Source of the DNA: Candidatus Magasanikiibacteriota bacterium
GTDB lineage: Bacteria; Patescibacteriota; Patescibacteriia; Magasanikbacterales; GWA2-37-8
Assembly: GCA_030650025.1 (NCBI GenBank)
Contig: JAUSEN010000025.1
Location: 66,601 to 114,002 of the forward strand
Length of the DNA: 47,402 bases
Reading direction: 5' to 3'
Shown here: piece after piece, positions 19,901-25,156 of the stretch
Layout: each line of letters starts with the position of its first letter
Numbering within the stretch: position 1 is the stretch's first letter
Notes under the pieces: model-generated
Databases searched by the model: none
What the model saw: only the letters and a program-made list of their open reading frames with translations
Told to the model about the DNA's origin: nothing
Made by a program: the position numbers and the translations under genes

Positions 19901-21745
19901 TTATTTTGCAGGGGTGAGGCTGGCGTGCTTGGCGCGAATTACCGGGTCAAAACGCACGGCTTCGGCCTGATTTACCCCTAATTCACTATCACACTTTGGG
20001 CACCAATCCCACTCGCCGGTTAAATAACCATGCTTAGGGCAAATGGAAAACGTGGGAGTAATGGTAATGTAGGGCAAACGGAACCGCGATAAGATAGATT
20101 TAACTAATTGGCGGCAGGCCTCCCCGCTCTCGATACGTTCGTTGAGATAGCAGTGGAACACCGTGCCGCCGGTGTATTTGGTTTGCAAATTGTCTTGCAG
20201 TTCCAGCGCGGCAAACACATCGTCCGTAAAACCAACCGGGATTTGCGATGAATTAGTATAATACGGAGCCGCGAGAGTGCCAGCCTGTAAAATTCCCGGG
20301 AAGCGGCGTTGGTCAGATTTGGCAAAACGGTAGGTGGTGCCCTCGGCGGGCGTGGCTTCTAAATTATATAAATTACCAGTAGCTTCTTGATACTGTTTTA
20401 AACGCTCTCTCATAAAATCTAATACTTCACCCGCAAATTTTTGCCCAAACGGCGTAGTAATATTTTCTTTATCATCGGTGAAATTACGAATCGCTTCGTT
20501 GAGGCCGTTAATGCCAATTGTAGAAAAGTGGTTGCGTAAATAACCAAGATAACGCTTAGTGAACGGAAATAAGCCGCGGTCAATCCACTTATGAATTTCC
20601 TTACGTTTAATCTCAAGGCTGGTTTTAGCAAGTTCCATCAAATGCCCAATACGCTGATAGAAGGCGACGACATCGCCTTTATGTTGATACCCGATCCGAG
20701 CCGAGTTGAGCGTTACTACCCCGATTGAACCGGTCATTTCGGCCGAGCCAAATAGACCACCACCGCGCTTACGCAATTCTGTTAAATCGAGCTGGAGGCG
20801 GCAGCACATACTGCGCACATCCCCTGGCAATAAATCTGAATTGATAAAATTTTGGAAGTAGGGCGTGCCGTATTTAGCAGTCATCTCAAAAAGCGGCAGA
20901 TTTTTGGGGTCTTCCCATTTAAAATCTTTTGTTACATTATAAGTGGGAATGGGAAAGGTAAACGTCCGGCCCTTGGAATCCCCTTTGGTCATGACGGCTA
21001 TGAAAGCGCGGTTAATAATGTCCATCTCGGGCTCTAGCTGACCATACGTATACTCGAATTCTTTACCGCCTAAAATTAAACGCTCGTCTTTTAAATCAGC
21101 GGGGCAATCCCAATCCAGCGTTATATTGGTAAACGGCGTTTGCGTGCCCCAGCGCGAGGGAATGTTAAGATTAAAAACAAAAGACTGTATATTTTGATAA
21201 ACATAGTCATACACTTTCTGATTAATATATTTTTCTTTCGTCTCCTCACTTAAAAACGAAATGCCGTTGTCGTCTATATCAGCTTTCAGTTCCAGCTCGT
21301 ATTTTTTTACAAATGGCGCGAGATAAGTGTCGAAGCTCGAGAAGGCCTGAGCGCCGGCCCACTCGTTTTGCAGGGTTCCCAAAAAATTTACCATCTGGGC
21401 GACAGCCGACGAGAGGTGTTTGGGCGGGCCAGATTCGATTTTGTTGGGAATGCCATTAAAGCCTTCTTCAAGCAGAGCGCGCAAGCTCCACCCAGCGCAG
21501 TAGCCCGCAAACATATCGAGGTCGTGGATATAAAAATCCGCGTGGCGATGCGCGTCACCAATGCTCTTAGGGTACACTTGCTCCAGCCAATAGTTGGCCG
21601 TGAGCTTGCCTGAACTATTAAGAATAAGCCCACCAATCGAATACCCGATGTTCGCGTTGGCATTAACGCGCCAGTCCACTTGATAAAGATACTCGGCGAT
21701 AGTTTGTTGGACTTCTACTACAAATTGACTATTATTTAAGGACAT
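19901..21745 (-). CDS. nrdD: Anaerobic (class III) ribonucleoside-triphosphate reductase, catalytic subunit; no ATP cone, no glycyl loop
   Basis: YIHDLD, QNEWAGAQA, FTFPIPTYN, RSMCCRL, EATPAEG, CPKHG...CPKC. Confidence 0.95.
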   Translation of the reverse strand: MSLNNSQFVVEVQQTIAEYLYQVDWRVNANANIGYSIGGLILNSSGKLTANYWLEQVYPKSIGDAHRHADFYIHDLDMFAGYCAGWSLRALLEEGFNGIPNKIESGPPKHLSSAVAQMVNFLGTLQNEWAGAQAFSSFDTYLAPFVKKYELELKADIDDNGISFLSEETKEKYINQKVYDYVYQNIQSFVFNLNIPSRWGTQTPFTNITLDWDCPADLKDERLILGGKEFEYTYGQLEPEMDIINRAFIAVMTKGDSKGRTFTFPIPTYNVTKDFKWEDPKNLPLFEMTAKYGTPYFQNFINSDLLPGDVRSMCCRLQLDLTELRKRGGGLFGSAEMTGSIGVVTLNSARIGYQHKGDVVAFYQRIGHLMELAKTSLEIKRKEIHKWIDRGLFPFTKRYLGYLRNHFSTIGINGLNEAIRNFTDDKENITTPFGQKFAGEVLDFMRERLKQYQEATGNLYNLEATPAEGTTYRFAKSDQRRFPGILQAGTLAAPYYTNSSQIPVGFTDDVFAALELQDNLQTKYTGGTVFHCYLNERIESGEACRQLVKSILSRFRLPYITITPTFSICPKHGYLTGEWDWCPKCDSELGVNQAEAVRFDPVIRAKHASLTPAK

Positions 21746-21757
21746 AGGCTGTTATTT

Positions 21758-21798
21758 AAAAATAAAAAACTCACTAGGAAGTGAGCTTCGTGAGCTTC
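21758..21798 (-). promoter_or_regulatory. Tandem repeat plus terminator-like hairpin (candidate attenuator) between the com-like gene and nrdD
   Basis: mRNA sense GAAGCUCAC-GAAGCUCAC-UUCCUA-GUGAGUUUUUUAUUUUU. Confidence 0.65.
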
Positions 21799-21815
21799 AG
21801 TAAAATTTAATAAAA

Positions 21816-22031
21816 TTATTTAGTGGCCATTGCTAACTGCTTTTTGGCCGGAGCCACCCGATGCGGGCAGGGCAGGATGGCGCAAAGCATGGCGTTAAAT
21901 TGCGACTGCTTTATGGTAGTGAAAGCGTGGCAAGACTTGCACTTTACTTCTACTTCGCCTTCGGCTAGCCAGCCGCGAAATAAAAGTTTTTTACAGCCGC
22001 TACAGCGGTATTCTTTATAAACAATGCCCAT
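21816..22031 (-). CDS. Mu Com-like zinc-finger protein
   Basis: YRCSGCKKLLF...VEVKCKSC pattern; first gene of the nrdD transcript. Confidence 0.8.
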   Translation of the reverse strand: MGIVYKEYRCSGCKKLLFRGWLAEGEVEVKCKSCHAFTTIKQSQFNAMLCAILPCPHRVAPAKKQLAMATK

Positions 22032-22048: not shown

Positions 22049-22096
22049 ACACTATATGTAGTGTTAATTTTTAATTTATAACACAATATATAGTTG
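22049..22096. promoter_or_regulatory. Tandem NrdR boxes
   Basis: ACACTATATGTAGTGT (22049-22064) and ACACAATATATAGTTG (22081-22096), starts 32 bp apart, matching acaCwAtATaTwGtgt. Confidence 0.88.
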
Positions 22097-22105
22097 TACG
22101 CAAAT

Positions 22106-22140
22106 ATTATACCACACTTCCACCAATTAAGTTATCCACA
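22106..22140 (-). promoter_or_regulatory. Extended -10 promoter (TGGTATAAT) of the com-nrdD operon with upstream DnaA box
   Basis: ATTATACCA at 22106-22114; TTATCCACA at 22132-22140. Confidence 0.7.
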
Positions 22141-22236: not shown

Positions 22237-22425
22237 TTGATGCGAACGCGACTGGAAGACGGATACTGGTGGTGCGACTTGTGCGGGGACTGGAACGACC
22301 CTGTACAGCCGCAGACTGACGCTCGTGGCAACGTGCAGTGCGCGTGCTGCGACGCCTACAACGGGGAGAGTGTCGCAACGATGCCTACCCCAAAACTGGC
22401 CGCACCCGCGGCGGCCACGGCCTAA
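22237..22425 (+). CDS. Small GC-rich Cys-rich (zinc-finger-like) protein
   Basis: AAGGAGG SD; CDLC...CACC; promoter-like TTGACT upstream. Confidence 0.6.
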   Translation: MMRTRLEDGYWWCDLCGDWNDPVQPQTDARGNVQCACCDAYNGESVATMPTPKLAAPAAATA

Positions 22426-23653: not shown

Positions 23654-23744
23654 TAAAACCTAATGTGGCCAAGGGATCGTTGCAGTTTGCCAGCAACGAC
23701 CCCTTGACCACTAATGGTCACATACAGGGGAGAAAGGCAAAAAA

Positions 23745-24890
23745 ATGCTCTTCAAACTCGTTCGGTTGCTCGGCATGCTCGCGCTGTACGGATTGGTGGT
23801 GTTCCAGGTCGGTTCGGCGGCCATCGGCCTTCTGAACCAGCCCAGGACCACGTCGGTCCTCGCGGGCGTGTTCCTGCTCGTCGGCATCGTCGGTTCGTTC
23901 ATCGCCATCGTCCCCGCCGTGCTCCGGTACGGCCAGAGCGCCTTCAAGGCGTACAAAAAGGAGATCGACATGACCCGCTTCAATTCGTTCCTGCTGTTCC
24001 TCGTGGCCACGAGCGTGCTCGGCACGAGTGGCTGCATCGGCTGCACTCGCATCGATGCCGGGCACGTCGGCATCGTGGTCAACCTCGCGGGCGACCAGCG
24101 CGGCGTGCAGGACCTGCCCACACAGACCGGCTGGGTGACGTACAACCCGATCGGCACCTCGGTGTTCGAGTACCCCACCTTCGTGCAGACGGCGGTGTGG
24201 ACCAAGAGCCTGACGGAGGGAAACCCCACCAACGAGGAGATCACGTTCACGAACGCGGACCAGATGCAGTTCGCGGCCGACATCTCGCTCGCCTACCAGC
24301 TCCAGCCGGAAAAAGTCCCCGCCTTCTACGTCAAGTTCCGCTCGGATGACCTCGCCAAGTTCACCCACGGCTTCCTCCGTAACCTCGCGCGCGAGAAGTT
24401 CGACAACGTCGGCGGCAAATACAAGACTGAGCAGATCATGGGCGACAACGCGCCCTTCCTCGCGGAAGTGCGCAAGGCGCTCCAGGACGAGCTCGACCCG
24501 ATCGGCGTGCACATCGAACAGTTCGGTTTTATCGGTGCACCCCGCCCGCCGCAGAACGTGATCGACTCGATCAACGCCAAGAACGCGGCCATGCAGAAGG
24601 CGATGCAGGTCGAGGGCGAACTGCGCCAGACCAAGGCTGAAGCCGAAAAGCATATCGCGGCGGCCGAAGGCCAGGCCAAGGCGGAAGTTGCCAAGGCCAA
24701 GGGTGACGCCGAAGCGCGGCGAATCAAGGCCGATGCCGAGGCCTATGCCAACCAGGTGGTGGCGCGTTCCATCACGCCACTGGTCATCGAGTACTGGCGT
24801 ACCCAGAAGTGGAACGGGCAGATGCCGCAGGTGACCAGTGGCAACAACTCTGGCCTTCTGTATCAGCTCCCGAGCCCCTCCAGCAAGTAA
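23745..24890 (+). CDS. SPFH/band 7/prohibitin-domain membrane protein, strongly GC-rich
   Basis: RIDAGHVGIVV, coiled-coil AEAE/AKGDAEA repeats, KWNGQMP; internal SD plus ATG at 23970. Confidence 0.9.
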   Translation: MLFKLVRLLGMLALYGLVVFQVGSAAIGLLNQPRTTSVLAGVFLLVGIVGSFIAIVPAVLRYGQSAFKAYKKEIDMTRFNSFLLFLVATSVLGTSGCIGCTRIDAGHVGIVVNLAGDQRGVQDLPTQTGWVTYNPIGTSVFEYPTFVQTAVWTKSLTEGNPTNEEITFTNADQMQFAADISLAYQLQPEKVPAFYVKFRSDDLAKFTHGFLRNLAREKFDNVGGKYKTEQIMGDNAPFLAEVRKALQDELDPIGVHIEQFGFIGAPRPPQNVIDSINAKNAAMQKAMQVEGELRQTKAEAEKHIAAAEGQAKAEVAKAKGDAEARRIKADAEAYANQVVARSITPLVIEYWRTQKWNGQMPQVTSGNNSGLLYQLPSPSSK

Positions 24891-25156
24891 CTCACCTATC
24901 CCCTAGCCTTGTCATCGGCTTCCAATAGATGCACTCGTGCGCCGGACACGTTCAAAATCCGGCACCTATCTGTGATTGCAATTAGAGATTACGGCCTTAA
25001 ATTTTAGGGCCAAAATAGGAGGCCGCTTCCTGCAGAGGCGGCCTTCCCAAAAAACACAAAAATTGTCCCCCTCGACAAAGGCTCGGGGCAATTTTTGGCT
25101 TTGCGATTTATCTAGAATAAGCTATAATAATCAAGCAAAAATAATTGCTTCAAATT

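Follow-up and report, generated by a model that had tools for sequence, protein, structure and literature searches.

Organization of the com–nrdD locus

In the window, by which we mean the whole analysed stretch of 47,402 nucleotides, we found a 71-amino-acid (aa) open reading frame (ORF; 21816–22031) whose product joins a Com-type zinc ribbon (residues ~6–42) to a tail with invariant C50, C55 and R58. The next gene, after a spacer of 70 nt, is nrdD, which encodes a class III ribonucleotide reductase; the com-like ORF, two repeats, a predicted terminator and nrdD all lie on the minus strand. The large part of nrdD (19901–21745, minus strand; 614 aa) matched positions 2–530 of the Pfam NRDD profile with 571 bits, and positions 511–562 were matched by a separate small ORF of 65 aa (19537–19734, minus strand), which starts at an ATG of its own and supplies the C-terminal glycyl-radical region (…RVMGYHRPV…). 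The activase gene nrdG lies further along the same strand (17957–18661; NCBIfam TIGR02495, 181 bits, above the cut-off). The division of nrdD into a large ORF and a small radical ORF, 20–50 nt apart, was kept in all nine close relatives checked, and more distant relatives have one continuous gene; the 65-aa ORF may represent a radical domain that stands alone. Conservation of the split in these nine relatives led us to reject a group I intron or a broken gene at the interruption. The oxygen-sensitive class III enzyme is one of two ribonucleotide reductases in the window's genome (1.03 Mb in 29 contigs), which also encodes a large subunit of the PF02867 type.

Several further features were noted around the operon. 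In this genome only, the two nrdD ORFs are separated by an element of ~130 nt that has inverted ends (~19765–19900); four other partial copies (74–86% identity) occur elsewhere in the genome, and the element looks like a miniature mobile repeat. Between the C-terminal nrdD ORF and nrdG, a plus-strand tRNA-like sequence ending in CCA (19431–19505) lies within a stretch of ~870 nt that is absent between nrdD and nrdG of relatives. ARAGORN did not call it at default settings and under relaxed settings read it as tRNA-Asp (anticodon AUC) with a mismatched anticodon stem; its Rfam match was to tRNA-Sec (23.5 bits, E = 0.15). In other genomes the nrdD matches are split inside one open frame of ~1030–1040 aa (G050 and G111) or show a gap in the profile (G146), and these cases look like inteins. 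Elsewhere in the window, a single-gene stretch (~23700–24900) has 62% G+C against ~46–50% around it, with a 381-aa ORF and many overlapping shadow ORFs.

Upstream of the com-like gene, the sequence TGgTATAAT (22106–22114, minus strand) reads as an extended −10 element and is the putative promoter of the com–nrdD operon; it did not appear in the output of our consensus scan because no −35 hexamer matches. Downstream of it are two NrdR-box-like palindromes with centres 32 bp apart (22081–22096 and 22049–22064, minus strand), which have three mismatches and one mismatch, respectively, to what we take to be the 16-nt NrdR consensus; the first also matches the core pattern. The genome encodes NrdR (166.7 bits, above the curated cut-off). 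Paired promoter boxes and the repressor gene, the two marks of an NrdR regulon, were both found, in agreement with the preliminary description of this DNA, which had placed the com-like ORF as the first gene under NrdR boxes. Across relatives, 16 of the 41 nrdD-linked loci have the NrdR box core in front of com, compared with a frequency of 2.2% among background windows.

A further element upstream of the promoter is an exact copy of the nonamer TGTGGATAA (22132–22140, minus strand), which we take to be a DnaA box. Eleven of the 41 nrdD-linked loci (L001, L003, L005, L006, L010, L013, L021, L022, L032, L033 and L035) have a perfect copy 57–119 nt before com, in one orientation throughout; among 2690 background windows of 200 nt, 21 contained it. 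This placement suggests that DnaA may feed into the com–nrdD operon. Directly upstream of the com promoter region, a divergent plus-strand ORF of 62 aa (22237–22425) carries C-x2-C and C-x-C-C motifs; it had no match in Pfam or NCBIfam.

The order of the genes is shared widely. A scan of one genome per prokaryote species yielded 61 com-like loci, all in genomes of Patescibacteria type, and in 41 of them com is followed by nrdD on the same strand. The order runs on into nrdG in 36 of the 41; the remaining five loci end first. The distance from com to nrdD is 63–115 nt in 14 loci and ~230–530 nt in most others, the latter because nrdD there has an N-terminal extension, presumably an ATP-cone as judged by eye.

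A conserved Com-type zinc-ribbon protein

The cysteines of the 71-aa protein are arranged as C10-x2-C13 followed by KKLLF, then K30-C31-x2-C34-H, then C50, C55 and H57. The preliminary description had recognized a Com-type ORF with two CxxC motifs and an extra C-terminal C/C/H, and its coordinates and residues were exact. A search of 5.8 billion proteins gave 15 matches including the ORF itself, the others being 50–73% identical to it. Invariant among the 15 are Y8, R9, C10, K15, L16, L17, F18, G20, E28, K30, C31, C34, C50, C55 and R58; in a wider alignment of 49 sequences, C10, C31 and C34 are invariant and C13 is nearly so. The closest named records come from Candidatus Magasanikbacteria and other metagenome-assembled genomes of Patescibacteria.

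When the family profile was compared with Mu Com by hhalign, using as reference the protein annotated in the phage Mu record AF083977, the two aligned over 31 columns of the zinc ribbon with 94.8% probability (E = 5.4e-8). The window protein itself scored 17.4 bits (E = 0.0031) on Pfam PF10122 (Zn_ribbon_Com), for which the gathering cut-off is 22.9 bits. Nine of the 15 homologues matched PF10122 at E ≤ 0.01 (best 1.3e-5), and the cut-off was exceeded by two of seven PAS-fused or longer relatives, both PAS-fused (L086, 27.7 bits; L051, 27.5 bits). The proposed kinship with the Mu-like Com family thus held up at the profile level, both in the alignment to Mu Com and in the PF10122 matches of the nine homologues. 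Judged by its sequence, the ORF is a conserved gene of Com type.

An AlphaFold2 model built from the 49 sequences had a mean pLDDT of 75.5, with a confident ribbon (residues 1–42, with four confident strands in 6–42) and a low-confidence tail. Foldseek comparison of the model with the PDB gave no match at E ≤ 0.001 (best 0.97), and no PDB sequence fell below E = 0.05 in a profile search. A tblastn search of phage genomes returned only ORFs of Bacillus phages, 32–44% identical over 58–59% of the query; one of these is annotated as gpCom.

Two repeats and a predicted terminator separate com from nrdD

The spacer behind the com-like gene begins after the stop codon (21818–21816) with 17 nt (21815–21799). 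It continues with GAAGCTCAC at 21798–21790 and again GAAGCTCAC at 21789–21781, then TTCCTA, GTGAG and TTTTTTATTTTT, which ends at 21758; a further 12 nt (21757–21746) lead to the nrdD ATG at 21745. As RNA, the leader past these first 17 nt reads GAAGCUCAC, GAAGCUCAC, UUCCUA, GUGAG and a U tract, exactly as the preliminary description had it. Each copy contains the heptamer GAAGCUC (repeat 1, 21792–21798; repeat 2, 21783–21789, both minus strand). Repeat 2 forms the base of the 5′ arm of a predicted intrinsic terminator (21758–21789, minus strand), which comprises a 10-bp stem (21766–21789) and a U tract reaching 21758; a consensus scan likewise returned a terminator running from 21789 to 21766 with ten pairs, a loop of four and a T tail. 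The stem ends 20 nt before the nrdD ATG, and the start codon is unpaired. The earlier statement that either copy can pair with GUGAGUUUU is true of the window, since both copies there carry a CAC extension, but not of relatives, in which the extension sits on the second copy only.

The arrangement is conserved behind homologues of the gene, as had been anticipated. Two GAAGCTC copies, 2–6 nt apart and followed by a hairpin and a T run, were seen in all 14 short com–nrdD spacers, and a two-copy motif lies between com and nrdD in all 41 nrdD-linked loci (32 canonical by regular expression and nine variant). One locus (L023) has an insertion of a 457-aa gene behind com, and there the motif remains adjacent to nrdD. 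No change in either heptamer was seen among the 33 aligned leaders, whose flanks vary freely, which argues that the motif is more than a chance occurrence; the proteins of these relatives are only 33–71% identical to that of the window. RNAalifold folding of the 33 leaders placed the full second heptamer inside the 5′ arm of the 10-bp terminator, with compensatory changes at three of the ten pairs.

We also applied a strict terminator test that demanded a folding energy of ≤ −5 kcal/mol, at least four of five repeat 2 bases paired and a run of at least four U residues. It was passed by 56 of 68 unique motif instances. The 12 that failed include three nrdD leaders in which the stem is weak or not evident (L005, L047 and L042), two with good stems and fewer paired repeat 2 bases (L031 and L035) and one with a strong stem and no U run (L054); the last three are technical failures of the test. 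An Rfam 15 scan of the window at the gathering score returned nothing other than one tRNA, and at E ≤ 5 the leader had one chance-level match only (tsr26, 21.3 bits, with the gathering score at 141). A promoter formed by the spacer and repeat 2, with TTGAAG as its −35 element, was considered and rejected, as the two spacer bases vary.

The hairpin and U tract have the look of a normal terminator, and one might suppose that they simply close a monocistronic com transcript while nrdD is transcribed separately. The gap from stem to ATG is only 20 nt, so there is no space for a separate nrdD promoter. Furthermore, the first GAAGCUC is invariant although it lies outside the terminator, and the two copies covary, as described below. 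We therefore regard an ordinary terminator as a highly improbable account of this leader.

The two copies are predicted to pair with each other

Rather than offering two single-stranded sites, the repeats are predicted to pair with each other through their AGCU cores, giving a 4-bp helix. Repeat 1 provides the 5′ strand and repeat 2 the 3′ strand of this mini-hairpin, which has the loop C-NN-GA and overhangs of GA on the 5′ side and C on the 3′ side, and which is a candidate antiterminator. The preliminary description had singled out the direct repeats and the terminator, both of which proved to be conserved, and had overlooked the pairing of the copies with each other.

Divergent leaders bring out this pairing, as their two copies differ from each other yet remain complementary at positions 3–6. 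The variant pairs are GAGGCUC/GAAGCCC, GAGGUUC/GAAACCC, GAGACUC/GAAGUCC, GAAACCC/GAGGUUC and GAAACUC/GAAGUUC. We counted 68 unique instances after excluding eight model matches that had no second GA....C copy. Fifty-two are AGCU/AGCU; 14 are variants, all fully paired (ten by double changes and four by G–U only); and two are mismatched. The mismatched ones (window 19309–19363 and L081), which we left in the count, are low-scoring model matches with no adjoining com-like gene. Overall, 98.9% of cells were paired and all four pairs showed changes on both sides, with 16 such cells against 1.7 in shuffles; kinship inflates these figures, although several differently named lineages contributed variants. 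The observed values were reached in none of 500 shuffles, and partners slid by 1–3 columns paired in only 7–53% of cases. Across the family, five of five proteins with KLFF go with a G:C outer pair in the mini-hairpin; we set this protein–RNA co-variation aside because the five probably form one clade.

Because the two cores are reverse complements of each other in all variants, the same pattern would be produced by a palindromic operator in DNA, that is, an inverted repeat for a dimeric DNA-binding protein, possibly the Com-like protein itself acting at an operator or as a roadblock. Such half-sites would be rotated relative to each other by the spacer, which ranges from 2 to 6 nt, and the invariant bases bordering each core (GA in front, C behind) repeat directly and not symmetrically. 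In every case the element is also joined to a covarying hairpin and its U tract and points in the direction of the downstream gene, as do the two divergent copies at one locus (L028). A DNA palindrome is thus unlikely, and we give it very little weight.

Repeat 2 is the strand common to both helices. The mini-hairpin and the terminator stem are mutually exclusive, each shows covariation and the terminator ends in a U tract, which is the make-up of an attenuator. The folding energy of the mini-hairpin is about −2.3 kcal/mol, compared with a median of −11.6 kcal/mol for the terminator region, so the weaker helix would need a clamp to win.

The published binding data for Com point to what such a clamp might be. 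In a SELEX study, the Com finger of Haemophilus sputorum selected a bipartite motif of two GAG(N)2CC copies flanking a 3–4-nt stem; the finger bound CC(N)2–3GAG in a hairpin loop, a GA dinucleotide was protected and the tail was dispensable for binding (PMC6483171). The leader motif has the same outline as the site given there, with GAR-NN-YC twice, a 4-bp covarying stem and the loop Y-C-NN-GA-R, and is by sequence a candidate site for a Com-type finger (PMC6483171). The loops of L042 and L037 read exactly CC-N2–3-GAG, as in the SELEX site (PMC6483171).

The gene and the motif occur together

We compared the distribution of the gene with that of the motif in two genome samples. Among 151 genomes of the order, the motif model matched 21 and the protein profile 13. 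A com-like gene is present in each of the 12 genomes that carry a two-copy motif; one (G099) has a weak gene match without the motif, and the nine motif-only matches are single-copy terminators or have a decayed first copy (G092). Among 151 genomes of the phylum, the gene and the motif were found in the same six. The co-occurrence owes much to common ancestry and not to independent events. The window's genome has one com-like gene and one strong motif (58.2 bits, the next match having 20.7 bits). Of the 52 genomes in the order sample that have nrdD, 43 lacked both the gene and the motif; the module is therefore dispensable for nrdD.

The pair also occurs in front of other genes. Com with the motif precedes DoxX-like genes in three loci (L026, L027 and L072; the Pfam DoxX match is weak, at 20.6 bits) and a 363-aa gene, pyrD by eye, in two (L074 and L076), whose genomes both carry nrdD on that strand at a point further downstream. 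It also precedes genes for membrane or surface proteins in one genus with 4–5 copies of the motif. Of the 20 com-like loci that lack nrdD, 12 (L036, L041, L048, L050, L051, L053 and L055–L060) showed no motif within 170 nt downstream or by the model at E ≤ 1, so some family members have no nearby site.

In some relatives the Com ribbon is fused to one or two PAS domains (L086, L088, L216, L051 and L060, with a weaker match in L048), and the motif follows the PAS-fused gene in L086, L088 and L216. The motif flanks the regulator gene itself in L052 and G206. In L052, L088 and L216 (the last in G206), the motif and terminator also lie upstream of the com-like gene, an arrangement that would amount to positive autoregulation.

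In viral contigs, a 16-nt pattern hit at least 117 stretches, as chance predicts, and 80 listed loci were scored with the full model. Among the loci listed, three of the 80 reached E ≤ 0.001, and a com-like ORF adjoins the motif in only one (L147); these matches say nothing firm about a phage origin.

The covarying helices are silent on what stabilizes the mini-hairpin. The RNA switch could be real and yet be run by a small ligand, another protein or the speed of transcription, with the com-like protein a co-transcribed passenger such as a small metal or redox protein for the reductase. The two invariant tail cysteines would suit such a passenger, as would the neighbours of com-like genes in two other loci, which by eye are flavodoxin-like (L041) and glutaredoxin-like (L036). 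However, a stem of 4 bp and a loop of 5 nt leave very little room for a ligand pocket, and the gene and motif travel jointly before unrelated genes and as PAS fusions. The presence of the gene in every order-sample genome with a two-copy motif, and of both in the same six genomes of the phylum sample, also speaks against a passenger, as does the resemblance of the motif to the measured Com site (PMC6483171). On this evidence, a passenger role for the protein seems improbable.

A model for Com-dependent antitermination

Each comparative check proposed in the preliminary description, on the Com profile and on the repeats and hairpin behind homologues, favoured its interpretation. Taking these observations together, we consider it likely that the Com-like protein clamps the weak hairpin, blocks the terminator and so would let NrdR-controlled transcription enter nrdD. 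The proposed module consists of a Com-type zinc-ribbon protein and, directly behind its gene, a leader RNA with two exclusive folds: a weak 4-bp hairpin formed by the AGCU cores, and the intrinsic terminator with the second copy as the base of its 5′ arm. Com would be transcribed from the NrdR-controlled promoter, and the unaided leader would adopt the terminator fold, so that transcripts would end after com. Once enough active Com-like protein is present, it would bind and clamp the weak hairpin as this emerges, holding repeat 2 off the 3′ arm. With the terminator prevented, polymerase would read into nrdD, the small glycyl-radical ORF and probably nrdG. If the clamp operates in this way, expression of nrdD would need both de-repression by NrdR and accumulated, perhaps signal-competent, Com-like protein. 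We infer the on-switch direction, the binding of the protein to the RNA and the sensing of a signal by the cysteine-bearing tail from the arrangement of the sequence.

A protein that binds the leader might instead act in another way, by activating translation or stabilizing the mRNA, as in Mu, or by promoting termination. Mu Com is a translational activator, both in the published work and in the annotation of its record (PMC6483171; AF083977), and the direction of the effect here is deduced from sequence. The nrdD start codon, by contrast, is unpaired and lies 20 nt past the stem, and a Com-type site that shares bases with the terminator arm means that binding can only disfavour the terminator. 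We consider these other actions unlikely. Antitermination fits better than translational activation in the style of Mu, because the terminator ends 20 nt before the ATG.

The tail cysteines and the PAS fusions suggest that the part outside the ribbon may carry a signal. For the zinc or redox sensing raised in the preliminary description, the two invariant tail cysteines are the one hint. More tentatively, the Com ribbon with its hairpin and terminator might be a general, modular 'one-component' RNA switch of Patescibacteria, in which the ribbon would recognize the RNA and the attached part, a C-x4-C-P-x-R tail or one or two PAS domains, would sense the signal; in the nrdD-linked form, the tail would report oxygen, redox state or metal. 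We regard this wider reading as possible and well short of probable. If it is true, the oxygen-sensitive reductase would be transcribed only when it is able to work.

Implications and comparison with known systems

Patescibacteria, or CPR bacteria, cannot be grown alone, and they have tiny genomes with few recognizable regulators. To our knowledge, almost nothing is known about gene regulation in this group. The module would show how these bacteria gate an oxygen-sensitive essential enzyme, and it is compact, a 71-aa protein and a 45-nt RNA, and directly testable. Such a small protein–RNA pair could also serve for synthetic control of termination. The Com paper gives no structure of the complex (PMC6483171), and the pseudo-symmetric RNA, in which two identical heptamers form one helix, bears on how Com recognizes its site. 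If the model is true, the Com zinc ribbon would extend from one phage curiosity, the translation of mom, to cellular transcription antiterminators, some of them bearing PAS domains. A full-text literature search found papers on Com and mom, and none on Com-like antiterminators, the GAAGCUC motif or a link to nrdD.

The nearest parallel is the com–mom system of phage Mu. Mu Com has a CCCC finger and a disordered C-terminal segment and melts a hairpin that covers the mom start (PMC6483171). The protein studied here is likewise a small CCCC ribbon, with C-x2-C-x-K-L-L-F ... E-V/I-K/R-C-x2-C and a poorly ordered tail (compare PMC6483171). Both regulator genes lie immediately upstream of their target on one transcript. 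Common to both systems is a short hairpin site that carries two GA-containing heptamers, and binding tips the balance between two competing folds toward one of them, as is predicted for the leader studied here (compare PMC6483171). The systems differ in the competing fold: in this leader it is an intrinsic terminator and the start codon stays free, so that the output should be transcription read-through and not translation. Sequestration of the target's start codon or ribosome site, as in Mu, was not found in this leader, whose U tract lies between the end of the stem (21766) and the ATG (21745). The targets here are cellular, nrdD and others, and not a phage DNA-modification gene. The tail here has two invariant cysteines, and in some relatives PAS domains take its place.

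In the LicT/SacY–RAT and ANTAR (EutV, AmiR and NasR) systems, a weak antiterminator hairpin overlaps the 5′ arm of the terminator and needs a bound protein, and sensor domains can be joined to the RNA-binding module. The proposed switch would resemble these systems in its weak hairpin sharing the 5′ arm of the terminator and in the sensor-type domains attached in some relatives. It differs in using a zinc ribbon as the RNA-binding unit, in having a single 4-bp hairpin made from two copies of one heptamer and in encoding the regulator in the same leader transcript; a domain scan of the window found no CAT/PRD or ANTAR domain. NrdR, for its part, represses ribonucleotide reductase operons on DNA, at initiation, through paired palindromes. 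The com–nrdD operon resembles other NrdR operons in its two 16-bp palindromes, ~32 bp apart and overlapping the nrd promoter, and in the nrdR gene of the genome. What would set it apart is the Com-like module, which we propose as a second gate that would act at the RNA level, downstream of NrdR.
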